This document shows positions 75-48,084 of a stretch of DNA of 49,078 bases, piece by piece. The DNA comes from Stramenopiles sp. TOSAG23-6. Taxonomy: Eukaryota. The notes under the pieces were generated by a model. That model searched no databases, was not told the DNA's origin, and was given only the letters and a program-made list of their open reading frames with translations. The translations under genes and the position numbers were made by a program. The stretch lies in the NCBI GenBank assembly GCA_900128565.1, contig LT635924.1, positions 1-49,078 on the forward strand, written 5' to 3'. Every line of letters starts with the position of its first letter. The first letter of the stretch is position 1.

Positions 75-902
75 TGGAACCAAATCTTTTAGAAGGCTAT
101 GTGAAAGTCGAACCCACTCGTTTTCATGTACGTTTTCTTATTTATTTCAAAAATGTCTTTTTTTTTTTTCATACGAAATTTCGTACCTAACAAATTTAAA
201 AATATATATATATTTTTATAATACATGATATTTACGGGAAAGGTGGAAAAATCATTCGCTGCCTCCAGGACAAACTTAATGTTAAGATAGATGTTCCGAA
301 AGACACAAAAGGTATTTCATCTAATTTAGTATCTCATCGCGTTTCGATCGTTGGTGATAAGAGTGATGTAAAAAAAGCGAAGGAGACAATCAAAAATCTC
401 ATAAAGTTCCACTATATACGTTTTATATGAATTTCTAATTTATTTTTTTTCATACGAAATTTCGTACCTAACATTTTTTTTAGATTTTTTGAAATATTTT
501 TTCACAATACATACAGAAATTACTCACCCTGGATTTACACATTCCTTGGTTGAAGTTGAAGAGTCAAAATATAGTCTTATTATTGGCATACGAGGTCAGA
601 CAATCAAAAGTATCGAAGGAGATACCAGGGCAAAAATTCATGTACGTTTTCAAAATTGAATTTTTATCTACATTTTTTTTCGTACGAAAATTTGTACCTA
701 ACAAAAAAATATTGAATGTAAAATATTTTTCATAATACATATACCCGGAAAGAATCACTCTGGTACACAGGTGATGATTGTGGGCCTTCCTGCAAACGTT
801 GCTAAGGCAGAAAAACGAGTTAAAGCGATCATTGATGATACATATTCTAACCGTTCTGCTCTTGCTGAGGATGTTGAAGTTGTTAATGATGATGAAAAAT
901 AA
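75..902 (+). CDS. Multi-KH-domain RNA-binding protein (5' partial, spliced)
   Basis: Exons 75-127, 227-415, 513-641, 741-902 (TAA 900-902). The spliced product contains KH motifs RFH|DIYGKGGKIIRCLQDKLNVKIDVP and SLIIGIRGQTIKSIEGDTRAKIH|IPG. Not visible in the ORF track because of the introns. Confidence 0.85.
128..226 (+). other. Non-canonical intron GT-AT, 99 nt, phase 0
   Basis: cat|gtacgtttt...catacgaaatttcgtacctaac...taatacat|gat; removal gives RFH-DIYGKGG. Confidence 0.88.
416..512 (+). other. Non-canonical intron AT-AT, 97 nt, phase 0
   Basis: tat|atacgtttt...cacaatacat|aca; removal gives KFHY-TEITHPG in frame with the next KH domain. Confidence 0.82.
642..740 (+). other. Non-canonical intron GT-AT, 99 nt, phase 0
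   Basis: cat|gtacgtttt...cataatacat|ata; removal gives AKIH-IPG; contains an in-frame stop. Confidence 0.88.
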
Positions 903-7286: not shown

Positions 7287-9704
7287 ATGATTCCCACTTC
7301 GTTTGTGTGCATGTCATGTGATGGTTCGGGGAAACGTCGTGGTAATTTGACAAAGAATGCACGGCGTATGTTACGTGCAGCAAAAATCTGGGGCAAACCA
7401 AAACCTAATGTAGAGTCTATGAGACTTGTTGTTAAGTGCAAAAGCTGTGATGGTTCGGGTCTCATTTCTGATATTACAGGTACAAGTTTGTCAAAGGAAG
7501 CGTGTGGTGCAGCACGTGATCGCGATGACTTCGTTGTTGGTGTTGCGGGTGGAGGTATCGGTGGTCTTGCTGTTGCTTTGGCTTTACAGCAGCGTGGTAT
7601 TCGTGTCATCGTATATGAAAGAGACGTTTCCTTCAATGAACGTAGTCAAGGCTATGGTCTTACGATGCAGCAAGGCGGTGCTGCGTTAGAGGCATTAGGA
7701 ATACGTTTTGAAGAAGAAAGTATATCATCTTCTGCGCATTATTCATTTAAACCTTCCGGTGAAGTTATCGGTTGTTATGGTCGTCGGCTTCGAGCTGCAG
7801 CACAAAGAGGCAGTTCAAACGAAAGTGTTGATGATGTCAGTGAAAAAGAGACAATTACTATGAGTAAAAATACACCAAAGCAGAATATGTATCATTTACT
7901 CAGGGACCCTCTCTTGAAAGTATCTATAGCAAAGAAAACGGATGAAAATCGCGGACTAAAAAGATTTCGATCGGCGGAGAAATCGACAAATACATCTGAA
8001 AAACGTGGTAATACTTGTAATACTAGTAGTAATAATAATAATAGTAATAATAATAGTATACCAATAGAAACTGAACAAAAGAAATCTAAAAAAAAGAAAA
8101 ATATAACATTCGATTCTCAGCCTCAAAAAACGAAAACTGAAAAATGTAAAAGTAGAAATAAAAACACGAAAACTGAAAAATGTAAAAGTAGAAATAAAAA
8201 CCGACATATTCCTCGACAACGACTTAGACAACTTTTATATGAAAGATTATTACCAGGTACTGTGCAATGGGGCTGCCGAGTAGTAGAATATAATGATAAT
8301 AGAATGAATAAAGTTGAACTTTCACTGTATAAGAAACAAAAGCACAAAAGTGTTGACAATGAGAAGAGCACTCAGCAAATTCGAAATTCGTTAGGTACGA
8401 AATTTGGTACGGATTCGAATCGGCCAACCAAAGAGACGATGTTTCAGCAAACAGTTTCTGTATTAGTAGGTGCTGATGGGATATTTTCAACCGTGAGAAA
8501 AGTAAAATTAGGTGATGATAAACAAAGCTTGCGTTATTTAAACGTCATGGTTATACTCGGTATTGTAGGTTTTTATTATGAATTTTGATTTTTTTTTTTT
8601 CGTAAAAAATTTTGTCCCTAACAAATTTCAAATTTTTAAAAATATTTCCTCAAAATAAATGCTCCTTGTGATTACCCAGGATATAATGAAACTGTATGTC
8701 AGACATTAGATGGTGACACGCGATTATACTCCATGCCTTTTACTAGCCCTATCCAAGAGTCTGGTGTTTATCATAATAGAAATTCATCAAATGATAATTT
8801 AAATGAAACAAAAAATTCTAATATTCCAAATGTTGTCAATTCAGCAGTTGCAGCAGTTGGACATGGTACAACTATGTGGCAGCTTTCTTTTCGAGCGACT
8901 GAAAATGAAGCAAAACAAATTGTATGTTTTATTTTTTTTTTTTGTATGAATTTTTTTTTCGTACGCAATTTTGTACCTAACAATTTTTTAAATTTTTTAA
9001 AAATATTTTTCCAAAATACTTGCTTCAACACCAAAAACTTTGAAAAGTGAAGCACTTCGTCGATGTTCGACTTGGCATGAACCGATCCCTCAGCTTTTGC
9101 AAGATACTGATTTCGAATTAGTTACTGGATATCCTTGCTTTGATAGACACCTACTTTCTGCTGAACGATGCAGAGGAGATTCTAATTCCAGGGTTACTTT
9201 TTTAGGTGACGCTGCTCATGTATCTTTTATTTTTTTTTTACAAAAAAATCGAATTTATTTTTCGTACGAAGTTTTGTACCTAACAAATTTTAGTTTTTTT
9301 TTTTGAAATATTTTTCCAAAATACATCCGATGTCACCTTTCAAAGGTCAGGGTGCAAATCAAGCGTTGCTTGATGCTGTCCTCCTCGCTCAACATTTATA
9401 TACATCAAATATAGCTACAAATGTTCGAAAAGAAAACGAGAAAATAGCGAATTCTTTGAGAAAAGCTGACAAAGTTAGAGGTTCCACAAAATATGAAATT
9501 CCTGATAGAACTGTAATTGATGCTATGGCTGCATATGAACGAATAATGTTAGATCGAAGTTCTATAAAGGTGAAGCAATCAGCTGAGGCAGCAAAAGTTT
9601 TACATATGAAGGAAGCGACAGCTGCTGTTGGGGGACAAACACGGGCAGCTGTGGCAATAGCTGCAATTCAAGGTCAGAATTTACAAACTCTGAATCATTC
9701 TTAA
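7287..9704 (+). CDS. FAD-dependent monooxygenase (group A flavoprotein hydroxylase type) with N-terminal CxxCxGxG pair, spliced
   Basis: Exons 7287-8564, 8661-8921, 9022-9219, 9327-9704. Motifs GGGIGG, LVGADGIFSTVR and, after splicing, LGDAAH|PMSPFKGQGANQALLDA. Confidence 0.9.
8565..8660 (+). other. Non-canonical intron GT-AT, 96 nt, phase 0
   Basis: att|gtaggttttt...tttgtccctaac...caaaataaat|gct; gives VILGI-APCDY in frame with ORF 8733. Confidence 0.82.
8922..9021 (+). other. Non-canonical intron GT-TT, 100 nt, phase 0
   Basis: att|gtatgtttt...ccaaaatactt|gct; gives EAKQI-ASTPKTLKSEALRRC. Confidence 0.85.
9220..9326 (+). other. Non-canonical intron GT-AT, 107 nt, phase 0
   Basis: cat|gtatctttt...ccaaaatacat|ccg; restores GDAAH-PMSP. 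Confidence 0.92.
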
Positions 9705-12700: not shown

Positions 12701-15700
12701 TTGTATTAGTAGCATGTGGCAAGATAATATGAGAAGTATTTAGTGTGTCAACATATGGATACGGGCTTCGGCCTGTTATACCAAAGCGTGACGGGTTCAT
12801 CTTGACCATGACGCGAATTAAAGAAGGTGGCATCACATCGCTTGAAAGATTTTCTGATATTGTACAATCGGTTCCTTTTGATTCAACTTCATCAACTATT
12901 TTACTTTCTAGAATCGTAGGTGGTGTTGAATTGAAAACTTTCATCGTACTATTTGCTTTATGCGTTTCCCCCAGTGTTTGTATTCTTTTGCTGAATATAT
13001 CGAGTAATGCTAGTGCAGTTTCAGCTTTACTAAACCAATCAGGTCGAGATCGCCTCATTGAAGCAGGAGCCTTCACGACACATTCAAGTTTTGACAACGC
13101 GATTTCCATTTCAACTAATGCTGACATATATGCACTGTCTCTTAAAGATCCATGTTCATGCAATGTTTCAAGCTGACCCGAGAAATGACCTAGCATAGTT
13201 TTAAGTATATTGTTTTGTCTTACAAGATTTTTTGTGGGTGTATCACTTTCAGAATTTGATGTTGTACAACTTTCCTCCAATACAAGCGTTAAAGTGTGCA
13301 TTGCTTCAATCCGAATATTTCCATCACTAGATGTAATAAATCGTAGTATTGCCTTTACGAGAAAAATAAGACGATCTTTTGGTAGTGATTGTGTTTCGAT
13401 CAAGAGTTCGATTAACCAAAATGATAACCGCGGGTTAGCTCTCTCAAGAGCATGTTTGTCACACATAATTAGTAAATGATTTTTCTCTGGATCATCTTGT
13501 GGTTCATTATTATCGCTACTTTCTGAATTCTTATTTCTAAGTAAACTATTTGATTTCAAGCTCACTGGACGCTGTGCATGACATGCACGAAATAAATGAC
13601 AAATACAAGTGTCAATTAAAGTTACTGCAATATCTTTAGTGTCATTTTGACCCGTGGGCATCGCTACAACATCTGTCTTGGGTCTTGAAAAATCTTTAGA
13701 CAATAAAACTTTTTTTAATACACTCTTAAAATTAGACAATAAACTACTGGATGCTACAGCTCCGTGAATAGCCGGAATTTTAAGTTCAGAAGAAAATTTA
13801 CCAGCAAGTAACTGGCACATTGACACAAGAAATGAAGATCCCCCAATAATATTCACTGAAGTAAATGCATGTATTGTGAAAAAATATTTCAAAATAAAAT
13901 CGTTAGGTACTAAATTTCGTATGAAAAAAAATGTAAATTAGAAATTCATATAAAACGTACATCTGAAGGTAAATTCTGTAATAGGGCAATGTACAAATCT
14001 CGTGCAAATAAAATCGATAGACTTTGCATCGCATGAATTCCGTGTGAATATACGGACAACTGCCAAAAGTTTTGATTCATATGAACTTTCGCTTGCTTTT
14101 TCAATTGGGTTATTTTGTCTTTTTTTGTATTTATTTCATTTCCATCTGTCGCTTTCGAACATTCTTCGGTTCGAGGACATCCATCAAAAGTCTCCATAAG
14201 ATTGTTATTTGAACGAGTTCCCAAATCACCGACTGGTAATTCTCTTTTAGCTTTATTACTTGATACAAGTGTATCTAGGGTGTCTTTTTCACCATCCATT
14301 ATATATTCAGATAAAGATCTCTCATGAGAATTTTCGACGGGCACATATTTTTCTTTGAACAATTCTCTTAACACAGAATCAAAATCTCCATTGTGTTGTT
14401 TCAGGATTTTAGATGTAATATCTACTTTAAATCCAAGAGTTTTGGTAAGTTCTTCATTTAGAGTACAATCTAAAATACCATTTTGATACACATTTGTGTC
14501 ATTGCCTCTAATAAAAGTATACATATCCCCACAATTGTGCATAGTAACACAGGGATATAACTCTTTACCCAGAAGATTTCCCGTATATTGAGCAGGATAC
14601 CAATTATCATCGTTCAGAGCCCACTGAATTGACCCAACGAACATATTTACACGAACTCGGACAATTGTCCCTGATCGAAAGCTTTTATCTGTAACTCGAT
14701 TTGAGCCACTGTTGTAACACTCCCCGTTATGATACAATGCATACCCTGATCTGTTTGTGCCACAATAGCTACTCAAATTTTGATTCCTTTCTGCCACTCC
14801 AACGAAGCCATATTTTTTCATTTTTGTGACTTCCACTGAAAACTCCGTAATTCCACTTTTTGGTATAGGTTCTGAGGCCAACACGGATCTGTAAGAGTCA
14901 TTAGATCCATTATCATCCTTGTATCGAACACAGACGTCTGACAAAATTTCAATGCGTTTATGGCACCCTCTAGGATCCCAGACAAAATTATGTGTCGTAA
15001 TTTCGTATCTATTTTCCATACTTGGAATTTTCTTGTACAACCATTTCCCATTAGCTATTAATCCATGCCGTTGTCCTATTCGATCAAATGCAAGACATCC
15101 TATACCAGAAGACATTGGCCACCAACCGATTAGTTGTGGGCTCAACGGTTTACATAAATTTTGAAATTCCTCAAATTTGTCTTCATTTAAACTTTTGTGC
15201 CAAATGCGTACGTCTCGAAATTCCATTCTCATTTGTTTTAACACATTTGGCTCTGTAAAATTTTGTTGTTTCGTTTCTATTACATCTGAATTCACTATTG
15301 AAGTATGATTTACGTTCGTAGCACATCCTCCAAATATCCACCCACCGAATTTAATGTTTGATGGTGAAGTTTTCAATGGGCATTCTCCAACTTTAACTCT
15401 ATTTCGATAAAGATACCAAGTTCCCCCGTCTGATGACACCAAACTATTTTTATCAATACCTATAGGAAGTTTTGATGGATTACCATCAATTGTAACTTTA
15501 TCAGATGTGAGATCCATAAGAACAAATGGATGCCATATAATACCACGAGGAATAATTATTGATGTTTGGAGTGAACCATTCTTATAGAATACTATTCTAC
15601 CATTATCACAGTCAAGAAAACAACCAATAATATCGCCACTTCGGTATGTATCAATCGGCGAACCATCAGCTTTTGTATCAATTGTAGTTCCACCGGCTTC

Positions 15701-18700: not shown

Positions 18701-21700
18701 GAATGATCGTTCCTCTGGTGTTAGTTCATAGCTAGCTAAGCGAGCTAACATTACTTTTGCATCAGAGTCACAAAATTTACCAGAATTTGAAAAGTGTGTC
18801 TTCTTTGTGATCTTACAAAAAGGAGTAGTCACAGTCGGAAAAGAAATCAAATGTGATTTTTGCTTCTGTGCTTCATTATAATTGGATGTGGCATTATCTG
18901 AATTAACTTCGTTAGTTTTACTTTTATATTTTGATTCTTTTGATTCGAATGACCTTTTAAAGCTTATAGCATCATAGTCAAAATTATTTAGAAGTTTTCC
19001 ATCGCTGCTCCACATTAATGCAACATTGTTAGGGGGGCCTACAGCACCCCATGATTCACATCCCTCGAGACTACTTTCTGTAACCAGCCCAACCGAAACG
19101 CGCCCTAAATAATTAGATTCTATTCGAATTTCAAAATAGTCCGATGGTAAATATTTAAAAATTTCACCATCATCACATTGTTTTTCCCAAACAGCATCTT
19201 GACCATCGAAAACGCTTTGCTGCATTTCAGATGACGAAACTAAACGAGATAAACCTTGTGATGGAATGCAGAAGATTGATTTATTTAGTTGGGAACTCGG
19301 CCATGCGGTTCCAATCACACCACCACCAGAATCTATATCAGAAGGTGTTGCATGCCTGATGAGAATAAAATCTGTCATCTCGTTTTCAATACCAACATTA
19401 GTCGTAATATCTAATGTAATTGATTTCGTAAATTTAGATATATTACCTAAAATTGATTTGACCTCTTTTGTGCCACCAATTAGCGGTATCCTTGCTTCAT
19501 ATGATAATCCAGATACTTGCAATAATTTCATGAGTAAAGCATCTTTGTTGCCAAACTCATTGAGAATTTTTACAGGGTTTGAAGCAATACGGCACAATTC
19601 ATCAATAAAGAAGTTACAACTATTATTTTTCATACTCATTTTTGATCCAACTTCCGACAGCATAGCAATCGGTGCGGCTGGGTTCGGTAGAAGTGATCGA
19701 AGCACACACATCGCTTTCATGCGAAGCATCCAAAATGTGGCCGATGGAATCATATATGTCATGGATTGCTCATTCGTGTTGCTGAATTTTATTAGATGTG
19801 CAAGTCTTTGTACAAGTGTTTTTACTTGATCCACTGGAAAATTTTCAACATCCAGTGCTGGTGAAACTGCTGGCGTTAATAAATTGAGTGGTATAGTTTC
19901 AATTGAAGTTCCATCGCCTAATGCTACCATTGCACTAGTTCCAGGTTGAATGAATCTTACCACAGTTCCAACTTGTGGCATACCTGCGTTGTCGATGGGG
20001 GCAACATTAACCTGAAAGCCAACACGAACAGCTTCCATATGAGCACCCAAAACATCTAATGCAGATCGCGTCATACGTAATTTGTGGCGTATTTCGGAAG
20101 ACTTCAGAAGAGATGCATCACAGGAAGGTGTAATTCCTAAATCATATATTGAACTAACTTGTTTGACTAAAATGTTTAATGTAAGTTGCGACCATATCTT
20201 AGAACGTTGGAGGGCACGAACCACCATGACCAACTCTGCAGAAAATTCCGATGCACATGTTCGAGAAAAAATATTTCAAATTCGAAATTTGTTAGCCACA
20301 AAATTTAGTAAGAAAAATGAATAAATTTGAAATTTATGATGAAAACGAACACTGGGAAGAAGGTATAGCATGGGGTTCCGTGTAACCATCGGACGCATCA
20401 TCTAAATAATAATATGATGTAGATTTCCCAATTAATTCAAGTAGCGAACATACGACGTCTTCTGCCGTCCAGTTAACACCAAGTGCAGAAGAAACAATCT
20501 CTGGGTCAATGTAGGGTAATGCCTCACAAAGTACTCGAATAACTCTCCTGCGAACATCAGGAGTGACGAGTGTGAATCCGGCATTGATATGTTTGTGCAA
20601 CAACAAAGGCACCGAACTTAAATGTCTGGGCGAATCACAGTTTTGTAAATGTTTATGAGGCGGTGATCTAGTTGCAAATCTACCACCTACCATTGATAAA
20701 AGCAGCCGTAATGTATCACTATCGCACACACGAGATCTCCCTACTGGTGATCGTACACAATGAAATAATAGTTGAAGTAGCCAATCGACACCTTGACTTG
20801 TTATTCTTCCAATTTCACCACCTGCCGCGGGCTTGCTACGAAAGGCATGGTGCTTCACCCATTTTTGTAGTTTTGCATAGGACAGCGAATCAGAAGTTTT
20901 ATCATTCAAAGATAAAGGTTTTATATGTAATGATCTAATCCAAGAGTGCATACCATGAGTAATTTCTTCTTCAGATTTTGATGAAAACGAAGGTGGCAAT
21001 GGTGGAGCACCCACATAAATAGGCGGAACATTAATTTCTCGTTCATTGGAGTTCACTCGTTCAGTGGCAGATTTTGGGTAAGAAATACAACTGCTTCGCA
21101 TGATTCTTAGCTCGTCATGAGGACCTTGACATTTCAGATCCATCATAGTTGCATGTGGAGGAACGCTTTTGTTACGCCATACACGCACCCCACCAATCCA
21201 ACCAGAAAATGTTAGTTTAGGCGAAAATAAAGAAAATCCTATACCTAAGTACCCACCAGTAGGTGGTACGGGTTGTCTTGCATCTTCCTGGAGTAGTTTG
21301 TTAAATACTAGAAGTTGACCATCAATGTATATGCATATTTCTTCCGATATGCTGTCATATATAGCACATATGTGATACCATTTCATTTCTTCCAATGTTT
21401 CATCAGGATTTGCTGGGTTGAATGGGCATAATGTGTTATTATCAGATCTGGTTTTGGTTTTGGAATTTTCAGTTACAAATATAAATTCAACAGTTGTTTT
21501 GTTCATTCGAAGTTCCCAGCCTGTTTCAGTACCATTCGTCGACAAAATTGGATTTTCGAATGTTTTGTCTGAAATATCCGATATACTTTCAATGCGAATC
21601 CAGACATGGGCTGTAACTGAATCATTATTATACATTACAATGTCACCCATATCTTGGTATTTAACCTCTTTTAGATTCCTTGTGTCATGAATGTATGCAA

Positions 21701-24700: not shown

Positions 24701-27700
24701 AAGGACCATCCAGTAAAGTTCTCGCACAGCGACCAGAAATCCATGCAAGTGTGATATGTAATTCACGTACAATGGTCCAAGCCCGTGCTGTTTCGGAATG
24801 AATGCTTAGATCTTGCATAGCTGCTTCCATTGCAGCCTGTGCCATTGCTTGTGCTCTTCTTGTTGCTGGAGATTCTTTGTTTATTGGTGATCGAACTATT
24901 ATCTGTGCAGCAAATACAGTCGTCCCCTTTTCATTATGACTTGCAGAGTATCTGCGGTAAGTGATTATATCGCCTTCTTTTGGAGGCCATGTTACAGGTG
25001 CATCTTGAGGACAATACCATGCAGCTCTTCCTATCACGTCATTCCCTGGTAAGCGCACTGATATATTAATATTTCCTTTCGGGTTATAAAAACCAATATA
25101 GTTTCCAGAAGTTATAGATATAAAAGGTTCTTTCAATTTCAAGTTAAGGCGACCCGTTGGGTAAACAAATGAACTACCATCTGCATTTTGCCCTGTTACT
25201 AGTGCCTCTGGCAAATGTACTTCTTTACATGCTTTGATAGTAAATTTCTTCGTCTCTCCGTCTACCAATTGAGCAGTATATATCATTATCGAGCTTGGAT
25301 TCCCTACAGGAGCTTTTTCAAAGCGGATAAATACATCTGTAATCACACCTGACTTTTCTGCGGGGAAATCCAGTATAAGATGACCAGTTCCCCATGCGGA
25401 TGTAGTAGCAAATATATCCGGGCCAACACGGCATAATATTTCATCTTTTCCTGTGATCGAACCCATTACATCTACAGCGATCGGCGCTCCACCGCTAGCT
25501 TCAAGATCCAGAAGACCACTTTCAGGCATTTCTTTAACAAGTTCACCACATGTAGCGAAAAGTTCACTTAATGGGCCCAATAGTTGCTCCGACAGCTGAC
25601 ATCTACATGCGAATGCTGACAGGGCTGTAAATAGTGGTAACGTTATTGATGAAATAATCGATGGTGAATCTGTAATATTCTGAACAATAGTTGCGCGAAT
25701 TTCTTGGAGGTGTTGTTTCGACGATCGTAATGATTCAATGCCAGAAATTGCCTCACATAGTAGATCTCGCGCTGCATTTGCACATCGAATAGCATGTGAC
25801 AAAATAATGCGACAAGCATGTGACATGGGTTGTTTAGTTCCACTTTGACTTTTCTCAAACCCTTCCAAAGTACAGCAGCACAAAACTTGGACTTGAATAG
25901 CGCCAAGGGACAACAATGCAGACTTTTCAATATCATCATATTCTAATTTTGGGGATTTACCTTCCTGAATATATTTTAGAGTCCTCAATAAACGTAATTG
26001 TGCACCCTGTAAAGTTCGCGATAGAAGTGATTGAAGTAAATGATTCAAAACACAAGCATCGGGGTTATGCTGTCGTGGGGTAATTGTCTTTCCTGCTTCA
26101 TTATTTTGGTCGAACTTTTTATTTTCATCTATGATTAATTCGATTACTAGCTTACGTGCGGTTGATAGCTTCGTAAAGCACTGCAGCAAACTTGAAAGTA
26201 AAATATTTGCACTTTCTCTATTGCTTACAATTTGAATTGTATCAGATAGAAGCTCTCCTTGTTCGGCTGCCGTTGGATAAAACAAATCGAGGCCTGCGGA
26301 AATTACCGTACACGCTTCCGTTCGAACTTTTTCCCATGGTTCTTTTGCTTCAGTAGGTTTTGACTTTATGATACGGATTATTTCTTTCCGCAATTCAATA
26401 ACTAAATTAGACCCATATATTATATTTATTCCAGCAGATAAAGCTGAGCGTCTTACACTATCAGATAGCTGCAAAGATTCAACTGGATGTCGACTCATAA
26501 TAAGTTGATGTATTTTGGAAAAATATTTAAAAAAAAAATTGTTAGGTACAAATTTCGTACGAAAAAAAAATCGAATTTGAAAAAAAATAAAACATACATG
26601 TACGTGGACCTTTAGCAATTGAAGACACGAGAGTACTATATAGAAGTTACCTTCATCGGTTGCTAAATTGTCTTTCAACAAAATCAATAATTGGAAGAAA
26701 GTATCACCTGATAGATCATATCCAAGAGGTACAGATAGGAGGCTTGTCCTTTTCGACTCTTGGTCAACTTCTAAAACTCCAGAAGGACCGAATGCTTCAG
26801 ATAATTGAACTAGTCGCGCAAGAAGTGCAAATCCAGAATCAGCAAGAGAAATGCATTCACTCCCTGTAACAGACGTAATGACATGTTTGGATCCCTTAAA
26901 TACGAGATTTGATCGTTCATGCTTAGTTAACATCGAAGGAGGTTTAATTTGAACTGAATTATTAAAACATGCTGAATTATCCCCTATTGTTTCTAATATT
27001 GGAATTCGCCCAATGGGCGTTCCTGCATTTGAATATCGTTCAAGCAGAAGCTTTTCACACACTGTATTACTGTTTGAGGAAACTCTACTCATACGCCATA
27101 CGCTATTACCATTCCAATCATAACAAACACCAGCCCCTTCGAGTCCATTTGTTGGCCCTGATTGAATACAATAACTACTTAAAAGTCTCCCACTCACCAA
27201 GCAAAATACATAACAAACATTCCATATATTTTCTCCAATATCATGTGAAGCGGGTACTATGACAAGTTCATGCCCATTTGTAAACATTGTAGAGCTTTGC
27301 GTCCAATCCTTATCAATAAAATTGAGTTGACTCAATGGGGCGCTTTTCCTATGTGGCATCTCTCGTATAGCAATTGCAGATACACATGGCCGAAGTCCTT
27401 CAAACTCTATGCACATTGAAATGTTTTCTCGTTTACTTTTTTTCACAATGTCGGTATACCGTTTAATATCAAAACAAACTGGAAAATGATATTCAACAGA
27501 TTTAAATTTCCCTCCTAATTCTTGAAATGGCCTAAAGTTTGCCATAACTGTGCACCCATCAATAACTACATTAAATCGACGCTCAGTGCTATCAAATGTA
27601 CAAAAACTAACTGTGACCATAAAGTAGCATGTATCTGCCGTACCCCTATGACTCGGGGTTTCTATTGGAATGTCATACTGAAATTTCATTGTATGTGATC

Positions 27701-40852: not shown

Positions 40853-43800
40853 GGAAGTCGTCCCCCCTATACCGGCCACTTTTGATTTTGTACGAAAATC
40901 AGTACCTAAGCAAAACTGAACAAAAAATGTACGTTTCCTATTCCGGCCGGTACTATGATAAGATCGAAAAGATACTTTTTTTCTAAGACTACGTAGGTAA
41001 GTATATAAGTGTTCCTATGAATAAAAGAGTATTTATTAAATTAATCTTAACATCTTGTTCTTTTGTATCACCCACTATTGTACCAACTTCACGTTAAAAA
41101 TTTCTACGCTTCGCTATCGTTGTCGCTTTCACTCTCAGACTCGCTTTCGGATTCGGATTCGCCTTCGCCTTCAGATTCATCATCCGTTTCGCTATTGGAA
41201 CTTTCACTATCAGATATTTCTCTATTAGAACTCTCGCGATCTCGTGCAGGCTCGTCGAAACAACTCTCGCAACAAACCCATCTACTGGATTTGCTTTCAT
41301 ATCTTGGTATTTGTAAGTCAATGTTTACGCCACAGCAGTTGCAAATGCAAACATCTCCAGACAACTCTCCAGACTCCGTAAAAATAAGCTCCTCCTCACT
41401 AAATTCATGACGACGCAATGCTTTATGTTTTTGTAATTCATCATATGTATAATCGGTAGATCGATCTTGGGTGCTTGCCCACCTAATTGTGTATTTTTCA
41501 TTTTCATAACTAACTACTGTTGCTTCTAACCAATCACCTTTCCAAAGAGCCAATACTGATTTGTGATTCATAAACCATTCATGATTTTCTTTTTTCTTTG
41601 CTTGTCTTGCTTTTTCTGCTTTGCTCATTTTTTTCTTTACGACGTATTGTTTTTTATTTCTAGAATTATACTCATCTAGAAAAAGCTGCTTAAGTTTCTT
41701 CGAATCAAATTGAATTGGTTTGTTTGAGCCATTTTCTTCCGACACAGAAATCTTCCATGAGAGAAGAATTGCTTTATAATCATTTTTGTATAGTGTTTCA
41801 TTTGATTCCATTTTGCTAATTGCACTATCAAGTATTTCTTTTTCTCTTGCTTTTTTTTGTTGAACTCTTTTTTCTTGTGCTTCTTTCTCTTTCTTTTTTT
41901 TCTCTTCTCTTTCTACAACTGCAGCAACAACATATTTACATTTATACTTAGCCTCATATTGCTCCTCAAATACTGCCTCTATTTTTGTTTTAGCAATCTT
42001 TGAGAGTTTTTTTCCATCTATATTATCTATTCCCCAACTCTCAAGAATTGCACGATGTTTGTTTACAGTAAGACTCTTTTTAGCATTCATGTCTTCAACA
42101 GCTTCCTCACGTAGTTTCATTTTTTTACGGATTAATTCCTGATCTTTAATAACTTTATCTTTTTTCTTTTGCTCTTTATCTTTTTTCTTGTCATCTCTAT
42201 TCTTTTGGACAGCTTTAACTTGTTCTAATTGTTCCGCAAGTGAAAAATCTGCACCATGAGAAGTATTGACACCTACTCTTTTTCTTTTATTTTTTTTTCT
42301 TTTTTGTTCTTCGGCATTTGCGCGTCTTGTTGGTTCAAACATCCCAGTCTCCAGAGATTCATATACTATACTTCTAATAACAACATCTCTTTCAAGAGGA
42401 ACTTTATATATCAAAACTTTGTCTGCATTTTCAGGTTTATTCCGTGGTGATACGCGAAGAGGTTTTGCTATATCTAAGTCTTTCGGAGCTTCTTCGAGGT
42501 AACTAAACATATCGATAGCCGTTTGCCAACTGGAATTATAACGGTCAACCGGATAAACACCGCACCTTTCAAACGCTCTTGTGACAATATTACCAACTTT
42601 AACTTCTTCAAAACCAAGTATATTGTTTTCCATGTACATATCATACCCATTTTTTTTAATTCGTGAGTCAATTAATTCTTTCTTTAGCCTTTCTGTAACT
42701 GTCATCCATGAACGACTGATAATTTTGTTATAGTCCGAGATCGAATACTTATTTGTATAGTTTAATTTCTTCCAATCATCAACTAACACTGAATATGCTG
42801 CACGGAGCATAGAATTGATCCCAACATCATTTGGTTGAGACCAAGATGATGTATGCGACGCAAGACAAAAGGGAAATACGTTATTATCCCGCAGTGTCTT
42901 CATTGCTGCCATTGACCACCGAGAAGCATGCCCATCAAAAGTCAAGATGACAGGTTTTCCATTCTTTCCGTATCCTTCTGGCAGTCCTTTGACAAACCAC
43001 TCACAATAACGCTTAAAAATTTCAATAGTCATAGAACCACTTGTAGAAACTTCCACTCTCCAGCCATTTGTCGAAATATCCGAATTAGGGTCACCTTTCC
43101 AAATAGGTTCGTCTAGTTCAAAGCCTGATAAGTGGTTTTGGTTTCTTTTTGGATTAGTTACACCAGGAGATGCGTGAATCACCATTGATGGTAAAATTGC
43201 TCCATCAGCCCTTGAAGTAACTACACATGTAGCATGGAATTCCGGATGATCTGAACCAAGTTTCGATCTCTTTCTTTTCTTTTTCCCTCCTCTATTAGGA
43301 ACATGAGCTTTACCAACAACTTTATTCCGCTTTCCATCTTCTTTTCCTCCAAACTCATCCATGTTGTAAATTTGTTTTGAAAAATCATTAACATCAAATT
43401 TTCCAGGAAACTCTTCTCCTAACCTCTTTACCAAACTTTCCAACTTCGAAAACACGGCATCTCTGACTTTGGTATTGGCCTTTTTTGCTCGTTCAAAGCT
43501 CAGAACTGCAGTTTTGTACTGTTTTAACTTCGGGTGACGCTTCAAGAATCCATGAACAAATGACCGTGTGCAGCCTTTCTCATACCCTAGCCTTGTAACA
43601 ATATGACTGGCAAAAGAGGTGATTTGTTCAATAGTCATTCCTAGACCAAATCCATCCATTTGTATTATAATTTGTTCCAACCACAATTCTTCATCATCAG
43701 TGAAATACCGCTTGAAATTTGGGTTTCCTGTTGATTTCAGTTCAAATTCCTCATTAATCAGACGAGTCATTCTTTTCTTGGTTTGTTTACCAATTTTTTT

Positions 43801-44664
43801 TCCGTATTTTGAGCGGGGTTTCCCAAAAAAACGTTCGAAATTATCAGATAATGTAGAATGTGGTATTCCATACTTCTTTGCGCAAGTATTCCGACCTGAT
43901 CCGTCTACCCATTCTTTCAAGGCATCCTTCATCCTTCTGAGACCTCGACCATCTTCTTTCCATTTCAATTTTTTTTTCTTTACAGTACGCTCCTCACGCT
44001 CCGCCGCAATCACCCGCTTGCGCTTCTTTGACTTCGCAGCTCTTAGAATGCGTTTGGGCAGACTGAAATTGATCTCCTTCAGTTTCCCACTAGTATAAGT
44101 GGGAGTGGTCTGAAGAAGATCTTTTTCAATCGGAGACGACAAAGACGAAGCTTCTTGTCGCTCTTTTTCTTCCTCCAATAAACGATTTCTGGAAGCCAGC
44201 CTCTCTTTATCAGCTTCCAACTGTGCAATTTTGAGGAGCAACGCCTCTTTATTAACATCATCTTCATTACTTTTGTGCGCAAGTGTTGACAACATGGTAT
44301 TTTTGAGCTTGAGAGTGAAGAAAGCATAACTTTGTGAACGAGTGGTTCAGAATCCAACTTCAAATTGAGTGGTTCTGATTCAATGGTATGTAATGTTTCC
44401 CGCGCTTTTTTTTTTATGCCTACAAGCCAATACATATTTGATAATCTTTATGGAGAATATTGTGAATGGGCATACAATGCTTCAAGCAGTATTACTGCTA
44501 AAAGCATACTAACGTTACGCGAATGTTCACATGTATGGTATCTTTTTAGTATCTTTACGTTATTGGTACGAATTTTCAGGCTTAACGGTCGATGTTAACC
44601 CTAACCCTAATCGTGGCCGGAACGGCCGGAATAGGATTCGGCCGGAATAGTAAAGAGTACTTCC
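40853..44664 (-). mobile_element. pogo/Fot1-like (Tc1/mariner superfamily, DD35D) DNA transposon, apparently intact
   Basis: TA at 40851-40852 and 44665-44666; imperfect TIR GGAAGT-N8-CTAT(A/T)CCGGCC at both ends; extra CTATTCCGGCC subterminal copies (40938-40948; 44615-44650); uninterrupted transposase ORF; inserted 33 bp after the DnaJ stop. Confidence 0.9.
41104..44295 (-). CDS. DDE_1 (pogo/CENP-B type) transposase with Tudor-like and Cys-finger C-terminal extension
   Basis: HTH AKKYGIPHSTL, CENP-B-type HTH (FVHGFLKRHPKL), catalytic YNMDE, TFDGHASR and QPND with 35 residues between the last two Asp. Confidence 0.92.
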   Translation of the reverse strand: MLSTLAHKSNEDDVNKEALLLKIAQLEADKERLASRNRLLEEEKERQEASSLSSPIEKDLLQTTPTYTSGKLKEINFSLPKRILRAAKSKKRKRVIAAEREERTVKKKKLKWKEDGRGLRRMKDALKEWVDGSGRNTCAKKYGIPHSTLSDNFERFFGKPRSKYGKKIGKQTKKRMTRLINEEFELKSTGNPNFKRYFTDDEELWLEQIIIQMDGFGLGMTIEQITSFASHIVTRLGYEKGCTRSFVHGFLKRHPKLKQYKTAVLSFERAKKANTKVRDAVFSKLESLVKRLGEEFPGKFDVNDFSKQIYNMDEFGGKEDGKRNKVVGKAHVPNRGGKKKRKRSKLGSDHPEFHATCVVTSRADGAILPSMVIHASPGVTNPKRNQNHLSGFELDEPIWKGDPNSDISTNGWRVEVSTSGSMTIEIFKRYCEWFVKGLPEGYGKNGKPVILTFDGHASRWSMAAMKTLRDNNVFPFCLASHTSSWSQPNDVGINSMLRAAYSVLVDDWKKLNYTNKYSISDYNKIISRSWMTVTERLKKELIDSRIKKNGYDMYMENNILGFEEVKVGNIVTRAFERCGVYPVDRYNSSWQTAIDMFSYLEEAPKDLDIAKPLRVSPRNKPENADKVLIYKVPLERDVVIRSIVYESLETGMFEPTRRANAEEQKRKKNKRKRVGVNTSHGADFSLAEQLEQVKAVQKNRDDKKKDKEQKKKDKVIKDQELIRKKMKLREEAVEDMNAKKSLTVNKHRAILESWGIDNIDGKKLSKIAKTKIEAVFEEQYEAKYKCKYVVAAVVEREEKKKKEKEAQEKRVQQKKAREKEILDSAISKMESNETLYKNDYKAILLSWKISVSEENGSNKPIQFDSKKLKQLFLDEYNSRNKKQYVVKKKMSKAEKARQAKKKENHEWFMNHKSVLALWKGDWLEATVVSYENEKYTIRWASTQDRSTDYTYDELQKHKALRRHEFSEEELIFTESGELSGDVCICNCCGVNIDLQIPRYESKSSRWVCCESCFDEPARDRESSNREISDSESSNSETDDESEGEGESESESESESESDNDSEA

Positions 44665-45098: not shown

Positions 45099-48084
45099 AT
45101 GACAGATAATATGTTACAAGATTGGGGTCAATTTACAAACGTAGTACGTGATACGGAAAAGCCTAGTTTAGGCCAGGTAAGTAAAGAGCCTTCGAATCAT
45201 AGTTCATTAAACGAAACCCAAAAGCAACATTCTATCATAGAACCATTTAAGGATGCTAATTCTACAACTTCTACTATAAATGATCGCAAAGACGATACAC
45301 AAATTAGATCTTTTTCTAACTCAAATTTGTTGACCACTACCCCCTCTTGCCCTAGTTTAAAAAATCTCAGTAGTGTTGCTGAATCAAACGTATCAACTCT
45401 TTTATCACATAATACTTCAGTAAATACCAATGATCTTCAAAAGAATCGAATAAATGGAGATTCATCATCAAATTTGGGTGTATCCAAAGTCCATCCATCT
45501 TGTCCAGATATGAAGGCACTTGCTCAAAATAGGGTAAGTCAGTCACGACAGACCCGAATACACCTCAGTGAAGCAAAAGCTGCATTATTTAGACACTCAC
45601 TCACCGGGGTCTTAGTAAAACGAGGTTTCGGAGGATTTAAGCGATGGGTACCAAGATATGTGACTTTGCGAGGGCGTATGCTCTCCTATTACACATTGAA
45701 AGATTCCAAAAAATGTGATATTGTTCGTTTTCATCATGAAATTTCGATTGTTTTTTTTACCTACGTTTTTTTTCGTAGACAATTTTGTACTTAATCATTT
45801 TTTTACTAAAATTTTTTTTTCACAATACTTGATTCTGTACACGCCAGAGGAGTTTTGGAACTTACAAAACATACAGTTATTAAAGCTGTACACTTCGATA
45901 CAAATGTATGTTTTATTTTTTTTTTTTCAAAAAAATCGAATTTTTTTTCGTACGAAATTTTGTACCTAACGAGTTTTTTTTTGAAATATTTTTCTAAAAT
46001 CCATATCGCTAATAGTCAATTTGGTATAAAGATTATTCCTATCAAAGAAAATACTTTAAATAATGATTTATATGACACTCAAACTCCAGGAGGCATAGAA
46101 CCGAATTTTTGTACTCAAAATAAAAATTCATTTGGTTGGTGGCGTGATAGAGCTTCATCAGCCCAATGTCCTCTACAGTTTGTTGATGAGTCCTTCAAAA
46201 ATAGTAATAATATGACGGATAACTCCAAAATAATAAAGCAAAGAAACAAAAGTATGCCTCCTCCGACTCGATCAGTCATCTCTAGTAAAAAGTTGTGGAT
46301 GTACATTTTCATTATTTATTAAAATTTGATGTTTTTTTTTGTACCAAAATTTGTACCTAACTAAAAAAAAATTTGAAATTGTTTTTCATCATTTATTTCA
46401 AATGTATTTGTTTTTTCTTTTTTTACGTAAAATATTTTTGTACCCAACGAATATTAAATATATATTTCAATCTATATGTGTATTTTTTCACAATATATGC
46501 TCATTGCAAGATCTGCCGACGAGCAGAATCGATGGTTAGAAAATCTTGCAAAAGTAATCCAATTGATATCACGTGTTGAAGAACCTGCAACACTTCGTGG
46601 CATGGGTACAGTCTATGATCATTTTTTTGTTGGTGAAATTTTAGGTCGTGGAAGATTTGGAATTGTTAGAGAATGTATACATAAAACAACAAATAAATTA
46701 TACGCATTAAAAATGGTTAATAAAACGAAAGCGTTCACCGCTGAAGGATTAGCTGCTCGAAGAACACTTCACAATGAATTAGCTGTTTTGAAACGATTAA
46801 AACTCGTCCTCGGACCTCATCCAGCTATATGTAATACATTTGAAGTATATAATGATAAATTTATTACTTATATTGTACTTGAGCATTTAGGTGGAGGTGA
46901 TTTATTTGATAGATTAGTTCAATTAGGAAAATATACAGAAGCAAATGCATCCACTTTGACGCGACAGTTACTCACAGGATTACAAGAATTACATCGTCGA
47001 AATATTATTCATCGCGATGTCAAGCCAGAAAATATTTTATTTTCATCAAAAGATAAAAACAAATTAGACGTAAAATTAGCTGATTTTGGTTGTGCCTTGA
47101 TTCTGAAACGGAACCCTAATGTACGTTTTTTATTTTTATCATGATTTTTTTTTACAAAGAAAATTTAAAATTTTTGTACTTATGAAAATTTTGTTGTACT
47201 ACAAAAAATATTTTCCCAAAATACATGCAAGTCAAAGACGGACTCAAAAGTTTCTGGATCGAACAATCGTAGGGACACCTGGTTATATCGCTCCAGAAGT
47301 GATACTGAAGTGTGAATATACTCCAAAATGCGATGTGTGGGCTGCAGGAGTGATATTATATATAATGCTTGTAGGCTATGTACGTTTTATTTTTTTTTTT
47401 AGTATGAATTTTTTTTTCATACGAAAGTTTGTACCTAACGATTTTTTTTTGAAATATTTTTCCAAAATACATCCTCCTTTTTATGGTAAAAATGAATGGG
47501 AAATATTTGAAAGAACAAAGCGTGGTTGCCTTAAATTTGATAATTCTGATTGGAAAGGTATATCTAAAAATGCTGTTGATCTCGTACGAGGAATGTTATG
47601 TGTCAATCCAGAGATTCGTTTGTCAACAAAACAGATTCTACGACATAATTGGATTATAGAGCCACCTTCTTCAAAACTTTTACCAGACACTCTTTCGCGA
47701 TTAACGAATTTGAATACACGAAGAAAAGCAAAAGAAAAGATGAGAAAATCAATGGAAATCGTCCCAAATACAATGAATACAAAAAATACAAAAAATACAA
47801 AAAATACAAAAAATCAAGAATCAGTAAAACATCAAAACTATGAAAATTGTACAAAATTGAATGAAATCGAAAGAAAGCAAGAGGAAGTGAGTAAAGAAAA
47901 TTTTGAAATTTCGAATACTCGAATGGATCAAACCAAACGACTAACACCAAAAGATATACGCCATGTAGATCAAAAATGTGACACAGTAAAACCATCAAAA
48001 AAAGCAACACCTGGCAGTTTGAATTTTACAGACAAGGAAATTGCAGAAATTAGAAGTAAAGTGAAATTTCGATCTATGGGATGA
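45099..48084 (+). CDS. PH-domain CAMK-family Ser/Thr protein kinase, spliced
   Basis: Exons 45099-45722, 45831-45905, 46005-46300, 46499-47120, 47227-47379, 47473-48084. PH motifs GVLVKRG..KRWVPRYVTL and ARSADEQNRWL; kinase motifs GRGRFG, HRDVKPEN, DFG, GTPGYIAPE and LVGY|PPFYG. Confidence 0.9.
45723..45830 (+). other. Non-canonical intron GT-TT, 108 nt, phase 0
   Basis: att|gttcgtttt...ttttgtacttaat...cacaatactt|gat; gives KCDI-DSVHARGVLEL within the PH domain. Confidence 0.82.
45906..46004 (+). other. Non-canonical intron GT-AT, 99 nt, phase 0, in frame with no stop
   Basis: aat|gtatgtttt...cgtacgaaattttgtacctaac...ctaaaatccat|atc. Confidence 0.82.
46301..46498 (+). other. Compound non-canonical intron (two tandem family units), 198 nt, phase 2
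   Basis: at|gtacatttt..ttgtacctaac..caaat gtatttg..ttgtacccaac..cacaatatat|g; gives KKLWM-LIARSADEQNRW. Confidence 0.75.
47121..47226 (+). other. Non-canonical intron GT-AT, 106 nt, phase 0 (degenerate core)
   Basis: aat|gtacgttttt...cccaaaatacat|gca; joins the DFG and APE parts of the activation segment. Confidence 0.87.
47380..47472 (+). other. Non-canonical intron GT-AT, 93 nt, phase 0, in frame with no stop
   Basis: tat|gtacgtttt...ccaaaatacat|cct; restores the CAMK motif LVGY-PPFY. Confidence 0.92.

Follow-up and report, generated by a model that had tools for sequence, protein, structure and literature searches.

What is the sequence TCATACGAAATTTCGTACCTAAC at positions 169–191 of the window (the whole stretch of 49,078 nt analysed here; positions are on the forward strand unless marked as minus), and does its palindromic part serve any purpose? 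An earlier note had taken it for a perfect 16-bp palindrome fused to a CTAAC branch point in the core of a repeated intron, with the palindrome acting either as an RNA hairpin or as a dimeric DNA-binding site. The reading that we favour, at a probability of roughly 0.8, is that the motif forms the branch-site core within an introner family, i.e., introns of ~99 nt which the major (U2) spliceosome removes from GT to AT. Our best reading of the system is that these introners are spliced by a co-evolved major spliceosome without need for AG, and the palindrome looks like a decaying leftover and not a working hairpin. The major spliceosome is commonly regarded as almost strictly dependent on a 3' AG; in this genome, introns by the thousand appear to be AT-ended while the Prp8 segment that was checked and the motifs of U2, U5, and U6 are ordinary.

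Copy Number and Architecture of the Family

The motif is real and hugely repeated. With up to three mismatches allowed, its 16-mer occurs 20 times in the window, against 0.25 expected by chance, and the 21.1 Mb genome contains 9,264 matches to the core against two for a control, a count which includes, and is inflated by, duplicated contigs. Contigs C2, C4, and C13/C14 show inverted and whole-contig duplications resembling amplified single-cell DNA. Family statistics are based on 137 de-duplicated copies from 537 kb sampled, in which there were 322 raw cores, 198 of them with both ends called; copies for column conservation were picked at up to six mismatches across the whole core. The many similar copies lie at unrelated gene positions, as is the case for introners.

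Two details of the earlier description did not survive, namely that the consensus is a perfect palindrome and that the intron ends in AATAC. No perfect palindrome is present among the 20 window matches, the copy at 169–191 begins with A, position 12 of the core is T in 75% of the 137 copies (majority core GTACGAAATTTTGTACCTAAC), and the exact perfect palindrome plus CTAAC has just 402 occurrences genome-wide. The intron terminus of the copy at 169–191 is ...AATACAT. On the other hand CTAAC does stand directly 3' of the palindrome, as had been stated. The core consensus is composed of two tandem 12-mers, of which the first (TTTCGTACGAAA) is self-complementary; a palindrome of 16 bp therefore arises by itself, and the window letters and the copy alignment place the imperfect one of this copy (171–186) at the junction of the two units.

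The family element (137 copies) has a median length of 99 nt and consists of GTAYGTTTT, a T-run and the core, then AAATATTTTT and a terminal AATAYAT. The block AAATATTTTT, conserved at 77–99% per column, bears out the second block seen earlier before the acceptor, and the branch A is predicted at a median of 39 nt from the 3' end (5–95% range 33–47; n = 137; 36 nt in the copy at 169–191), in keeping with the 34–43 nt given before. The first two intron bases are GT in 115/137 copies (AT 11, GA 4, GC 4), and the final dinucleotide is AT in 109, TT in 8, GT in 8, AC in 5, another in 5, and AG, the usual end of U2-type introns, in 2. Genome-wide, AT and AG ends number 1,989 and 85, respectively (AG 85/2,074). 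The proposal that a 3' block replaces the AG signal thus held in so far as AG is mostly absent, while the acceptor is YAT and not AATAC. As five AG-ending family members were inspected individually, AG is a permitted yet uncommon end in this family. At L082 (3535–3636, minus strand) a family body bears fully canonical AG|GTAAGT...AG ends. A search for canonical AG|GTAAGT...CTRAC...YAG|G introns gave 0 matches against 10 for a control, with a pattern so narrow that absence is not implied; an apparent non-family intron at L159 (~1505–1610) resembles GTAAGT at its start and shows no evident AG end in frame.

Introns of the Window, Reading Frames, and RNA

The intron that hosts the motif is a phase 0, GT...AT intron of 99 nt in a KH-domain gene (128–226); when retained it brings an in-frame stop, and the next exon matches KH_1. 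Letters and ORFs place further family introns at 1–74 (the 3' portion, truncated by the contig start), 642–740 (GT...AT) and, on the minus strand, 2409–2504 (GA...AT, with restoration of the frame) and 2877–2977 (GT...AT). Homologue alignment supports those at 8922–9021 (GT...TT, with a TT duplication) and 9220–9326 (GT...AT, within a conserved monooxygenase motif). A very large HECT-ligase gene of ~6,700 codons with SPRY, laminin G, and malectin domains (9768–30092, minus) is broken by three family introns only; ORFs and domain matches place the intron at 13869–13960 (minus) in this gene, and the letters reveal introns at 20257–20350 (minus), a diverged copy which keeps CTAAC while the palindrome has decayed, exactly as had been noted, and at 26508–26597 (minus; 90 nt, in frame and stop-free). 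Toward the end of the window lie 45723–45830 (GT...TT, kinase gene), 45906–46004 (GT...AT, majority core), and 47380–47472 (GT...AT, inside the kinase domain match). The major ORF breaks that were checked in the window coincide with family copies. A long intron of the kinase gene (46301–46497) has two cores and is likely a nested or duplicated copy; double copies of this kind are also present in L059, L067, and C448. Core-like copies without intron ends were seen at 8390, 31247, 33502, 38086, and 39285, intergenic or near starts, with one antisense in a coding frame.

Exact excision of the element opens at least 30 codons on each side, in sense, for 119 of 132 copies, compared with 17 in antisense, 34 when the cut is off by one, and 32 when it is off by two; intron phases among family copies are 50/34/35. 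Removal from RNA was seen for one copy (two runs, one study), in addition to the restored frames: 97 nt of the copy at 416–512, a family member of 97 nt with A at +1 (AT...AT), are skipped in runs X3 and X4 (joint 413 to 511). The support consists of one contig per run from two poly(A) metatranscriptome runs of a single study at a depth of ~3, with the letters between recorded as "not known", and the joint has 3 bases of slide, so that the RNA does not fix the splice register. No other of the 15 joints shown (of 26) is a true junction, and none of them crosses 128–226. Runs X1 and X2 yielded for the most part contigs full of repeats and cross-copy joints, which were set aside as artefacts.

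Could the elements instead be excised at the DNA level, as happens in ciliates, or through non-spliceosomal end-pairing, as proposed for euglenid introns? Their ends are indeed short inverted repeats of each other (ATGTAY...RTACAT), and a direct repeat of 2 bases is present as well. We attach very little weight to this explanation: orientation tracks the gene (119 sense versus 17 antisense), U1, U6, and U2 fit the motifs at donor and branch site, and the first and last bases covary as those of spliceosomal introns do.

Splice Register

Because AT usually flanks both sides, GT...AT and AT...AC cuts yield identical mRNA. Cut two bases further upstream, the introns would be AT-AC introns of minor or minor-like type, and the leftmost reading of the RNA joint is indeed AT..AC; furthermore AC precedes the final AT in ~72% of the 137 copies, and TACCTAAC is similar to the U12 branch box. 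This is nonetheless highly improbable in our view. The dinucleotide just upstream of GT is AT in only 89/137 copies, i.e., 48/137 would begin with non-AT dinucleotides, and two copies would gain a stop codon (in a set preselected for an open GT-register frame). The GT...AT family intron at 8565–8660, which has exonic TT upstream and hence differing flanks, fixes the splice register: the residue produced by the GT cut is found in 20/22 homologues and that produced by the AT-AC cut in 0/22 (22 of 120 matches aligned). The pairing with U1 and U6 is in the GT register as well. The U12-type donor consensus is RTATCCTT, and the donor of the 137 copies is GTAYGTTTT. U12, U11, and U6atac were not found in the assembly (nor was SF1, a sign that assembly or search is incomplete), and with this GTAYGT donor the suggestion of a branch site intermediate between the U2 and U12 types is not supported.

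Pairing of A+1 with C-1 is a known trait of AT-AC introns. Genome-wide, the last base is C in 13/107 A-starting copies (12%) and in 43/2,032 G-starting copies (2%), where ~3 C-ended A-starters are expected by chance (hand calculation, with one locus in two lists and one duplicated); subfamily structure could contribute to this covariation. Dinucleotide counts, homologue residues, end covariation, and snRNA pairing favour the GT...AT register.

Spliceosomal RNAs and Proteins

The U1 5' end of this genome is AAACGUACAUG, as compared with the Rfam consensus AUACUUACCUG, and differs from it by three changes. The gene scores 54.1 bits (E 9e-13), below the gathering score of 69.5. The three changes face the +7 U, the +4 C/U, and the last exon base U, and all of them pair with the YAT|GTAYGTTT donor; 11/11 bases pair with CAU|GUACGUUU, and also with UAU|GUAUGUUU when G.U pairs are allowed, while a fourth A upstream in U1 could pair with the donor +9 U. 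The donor of the host intron, CAT|GTACGTTTT (125–136), is complementary to this 5' end throughout. Searching the genome for U1 returned only this gene and its duplicate among 41 of 253 candidates scored, and the canonical U1 12-mer had three genome matches, none of which is a U1, against two for a control, i.e., chance level. The altered U1 gave 22 matches in metagenomes, and of the 20 checked none matched an RNA family.

U5, U2, U1, and U4 lie in a tight row on one contig which also carries a full family intron, and this ties the snRNA genes to the same genome. The four genes stand head to tail, spaced 2, 23, and 5 bases apart (L031/L160, 9–645, on G000:C1146), as if the row were one transcription unit. 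U2 has the normal GUAGUA pairing site, the U5 loop and the U6 ACAGAGA are unchanged, and U4 is present. The features of a U2-type intron found here are a GT donor that is complementary to U1 and offers G+5 to U6, and a CTAAC branch box that pairs with U2 GUAGUA (pairing read by eye).

From these matches we would propose the following course of splicing. U1, with its three 5' changes, would pair over 11 bases with YAT|GTAYGTTT (the match itself is seen in the sequences), and the unchanged ACAGA box of U6 would pair with donor +4 to +6. CUAAC would be paired by U2, the second A acting as the branch. The acceptor would then be chosen without AG, by the branch box together with AAUAYAU, at AATAYAT ~33–47 nt downstream, where AG, TT, GT, and AC could serve too.

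Among the proteins, U2AF65 is present in the genome; in this gene (L149, 664–2628, minus) each of the two central RRMs matches the family model's first RRM. U2AF35 was not found with two motifs or among 17 CCCH matches, and SF1 was not found either. Over human residues 1479–1578 Prp8 is identical except at two positions, and it is ordinary over the stretch aligned around the 1585 loop. The Prp8 gene has no intron, and its best named full-length matches are oomycetes and Tribonema. Near human residues 1440–1452 Prp8 (L076) contains a short, unusually diverged stretch amid a near-invariant region.

Palindrome and Branch Box

Conservation of the core is one-sided. In 137 copies the left arm GTAC is conserved at 54/89/91/67% per column, compared with 96/100/98/95/94/100/99/100/90% for the right part GTACCTAAC, which in the window is the branch-site box at 183–191 with a predicted branch A at 190. 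Among loci that were retrieved without use of a pattern (hand counts, duplicates included), TAA is kept in 90/91 copies with an intact palindrome, whereas copies with an intact right part keep the left arm TACG in 90/142 and have lost it in 52/142. These counts and the normal GUAGUA of U2 support CTAAC as a U2-type branch site. The branch-site idea was to be given up if CTAAC were no more conserved than its neighbours; across the 137 copies it is more conserved, so the idea stands.

One alternative is that the palindrome functions as an RNA hairpin which holds the branch point in place, or that its right arm pairs with the donor GUAYG and so joins donor to branch site. Isolated cores do fold at -3.3 and -4.4 kcal/mol (z -2.8 and -2.6), the common C-to-T change retains a G.U pair, and in the minimum-energy fold of the 128–226 intron the donor is paired with the right arm. 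A role of this kind nevertheless seems improbable. The covariation check, in 82 aligned cores (75 distinct), found 82.7% of stem cells paired against 82.2% in shuffles, a level reached by 116 of 500 shuffles, with 1/450 cells compensatory; three of the six stem pairs are broken in 29, 20, and 13 of the 75 distinct rows; and the left arm is lost in the 52/142 copies given above. One core folds at merely -1.2 kcal/mol, and the hairpin is absent from the minimum-energy fold in 2/5 whole introns, where folding is weak and unstable. Moreover, a hairpin or a fold with the donor would conceal bases needed by U1, U6, or U2.

A dimeric DNA site in current use is likewise unlikely, because conservation is one-sided. 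Variation in the core is largely C-to-T or G-to-A at CG sites, with G-to-A at 34 and 21% in the left arm, 5% at donor +5, and 3% in the branch box, a pattern which points to selection on the RNA strand. On the branch-site reading, the palindrome would be an inherited piece of the element whose left arm is decaying, mostly at CG sites, and whose right arm would be kept because it overlaps the branch box.

Origin and Relation to Transposons

The family may go back to a small DNA element, GTAY...ATAC, which would have entered YAT|G sites for the most part and duplicated two bases, and the two-base duplicate would have become the last two intron bases. Of the 48 copies in which the upstream dinucleotide is not AT, 14 carry that dinucleotide again at the 3' end, and AT is the 3' end of 28. 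The 2-base target duplication is genuine, with exon drift or selection for AT. The only terminal inverted repeat seen in the 137 copies, where at least 6 nt had been looked for, is GTAY/ATAC.

Might a transposase responsible for the spread of the family once have bound the palindrome, which would then be what remains of a transposon end and be free to decay now? The same core lies within TA-flanked TACCGGCCAC ends in three places, namely both ends of a small inverted-repeat element and, in the window, a site beside a DDE_1 transposase gene (40868–40956, a non-intronic core-like copy ending in CCTAAG, by letters and domain match). A shrunken copy of the core is also found inside an intact-looking Harbinger element. 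Against this, there are just three such TA-flanked copies genome-wide, with cores ending in CCTAAG or CCTAAT and not in CCTAAC; the introns have a single central core and not one per end; what they duplicate varies, with a bias to AT, instead of being TA or TAA; and the TA-flanked elements could have acquired intron pieces. We regard this former role as possible but less probable than its absence. It is compatible, as an origin story, with the branch-site reading, and the palindrome may descend from an ancestral transposon end.

The small inverted-repeat element (L053, 1937–2370) is TA-flanked and has an intron core in each end. The DDE_1 (pogo-like) transposase frame of the window (41104–44346, minus) is open over 1,080 codons, with CCGGCC-rich repeats near 40870–40956 and 44615–44655. 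The PIF/Harbinger element (L142, 481–3612, G000:C2432) is on four contigs and has a TAA duplication, GGCC ends, and two facing ORFs, between which lies the 45-nt GT...AT mini-copy of the intron core. As candidate mobilisers, five DDE_Tnp_4 matches (two distinct elements) were rejected as they do not have the ends of the intron, and no autonomous element with these ends was seen among the DDE_Tnp_4 and DDE_1 elements examined. The core is found in no viral contig (0).

Comparison With Known Systems

In the available text on Fritillaria borealis and F. pellucida (PMC13326754), a 3' AT is the commonest end of non-canonical introns (34 and 44%, respectively). What is common to both systems, as far as that text goes, is a U2 spliceosome and a YAY triplet that stands ahead of the donor and again at the acceptor, the minor spliceosome being lost there. 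Fritillaria is described in it as having mostly non-GT donors, very mixed ends, a strictly preserved U1 5' end, and a duplicated U2AF, whereas here a single family has GT donors, AT ends in ~80%, a branch box that hardly varies, and a rewritten U1. U1 5' ends changed to pair with an atypical donor are described for Entamoeba and Mastigamoeba in a preprint which, in the portion available, calls co-evolved U1 rare and reports none in 69 yeasts, Thecamonas, and Mamiellales (bioRxiv 10.1101/2022.06.08.495308). By comparison with the Entamoeba and Mastigamoeba cases as given there, U1 has three changes here, one of which faces the last exon base (AU instead of AG), and is linked to a mobile AT-ended family.

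Introners (PMC9860276, PMC12130899, PMC11282704) resemble the present family in being thousands of similar short sense introns that carry one splice site and take the other from a target duplication. The main text of these surveys gives duplications of 3–9 bp and 5 to >2,000 copies and admits AG or AC at the 3' end; here the duplication is 2 bp, there are ~9,000 matches, and the ends are AT. The introners of Amoebophrya likewise occur in a marine protist and are repeated and transposon-like, with non-canonical ends, but U1 is reported absent there in the text available (PMC11282704), while here it is present and matches the donor. ISL2EU transposons share a 2-bp AT target duplication; as described in the accessible account they have an A|AT|T target and GG termini (PMC4482050), in contrast to YAT|G, GT...AC termini, and a variable duplication here, and the family is accordingly not assigned to ISL2EU. 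The literature covered, which extended to few subscription papers and to the introner surveys without their supplements (PMC9860276, PMC12130899; these may list the family), holds no report of GT-AT introns or of AT-ended introners with a matched U1.

A more far-reaching and quite tentative extension is that invasion by a transposon rewrote the splice code: AG at the exon end and at the intron end would have become AU, U1 would have been re-tuned to the donor of the invader including the exon base, U2AF35, the factor that reads AG, would have been lost, and the acceptor would have come to be defined by the near-invariant branch box and a dedicated AAUAYAU signal. The matching U1 is a rare direct sign of a spliceosome adapting to a mobile intron family, and one of its changes faces the exon. 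Both the choice of a second-step site without AG and the question of which changed first, introns or machinery, become testable in this system, and it should be noted that gene finders which require AG cannot place introns of this family. The closest homologue of one of the window genes carries a MAST-type label, which together with the Prp8 matches makes an uncultured marine stramenopile the probable host. Short TTAGGG/CCCTAA runs lie within the contig at 960–972, 5720–5735, and 44597–44610.
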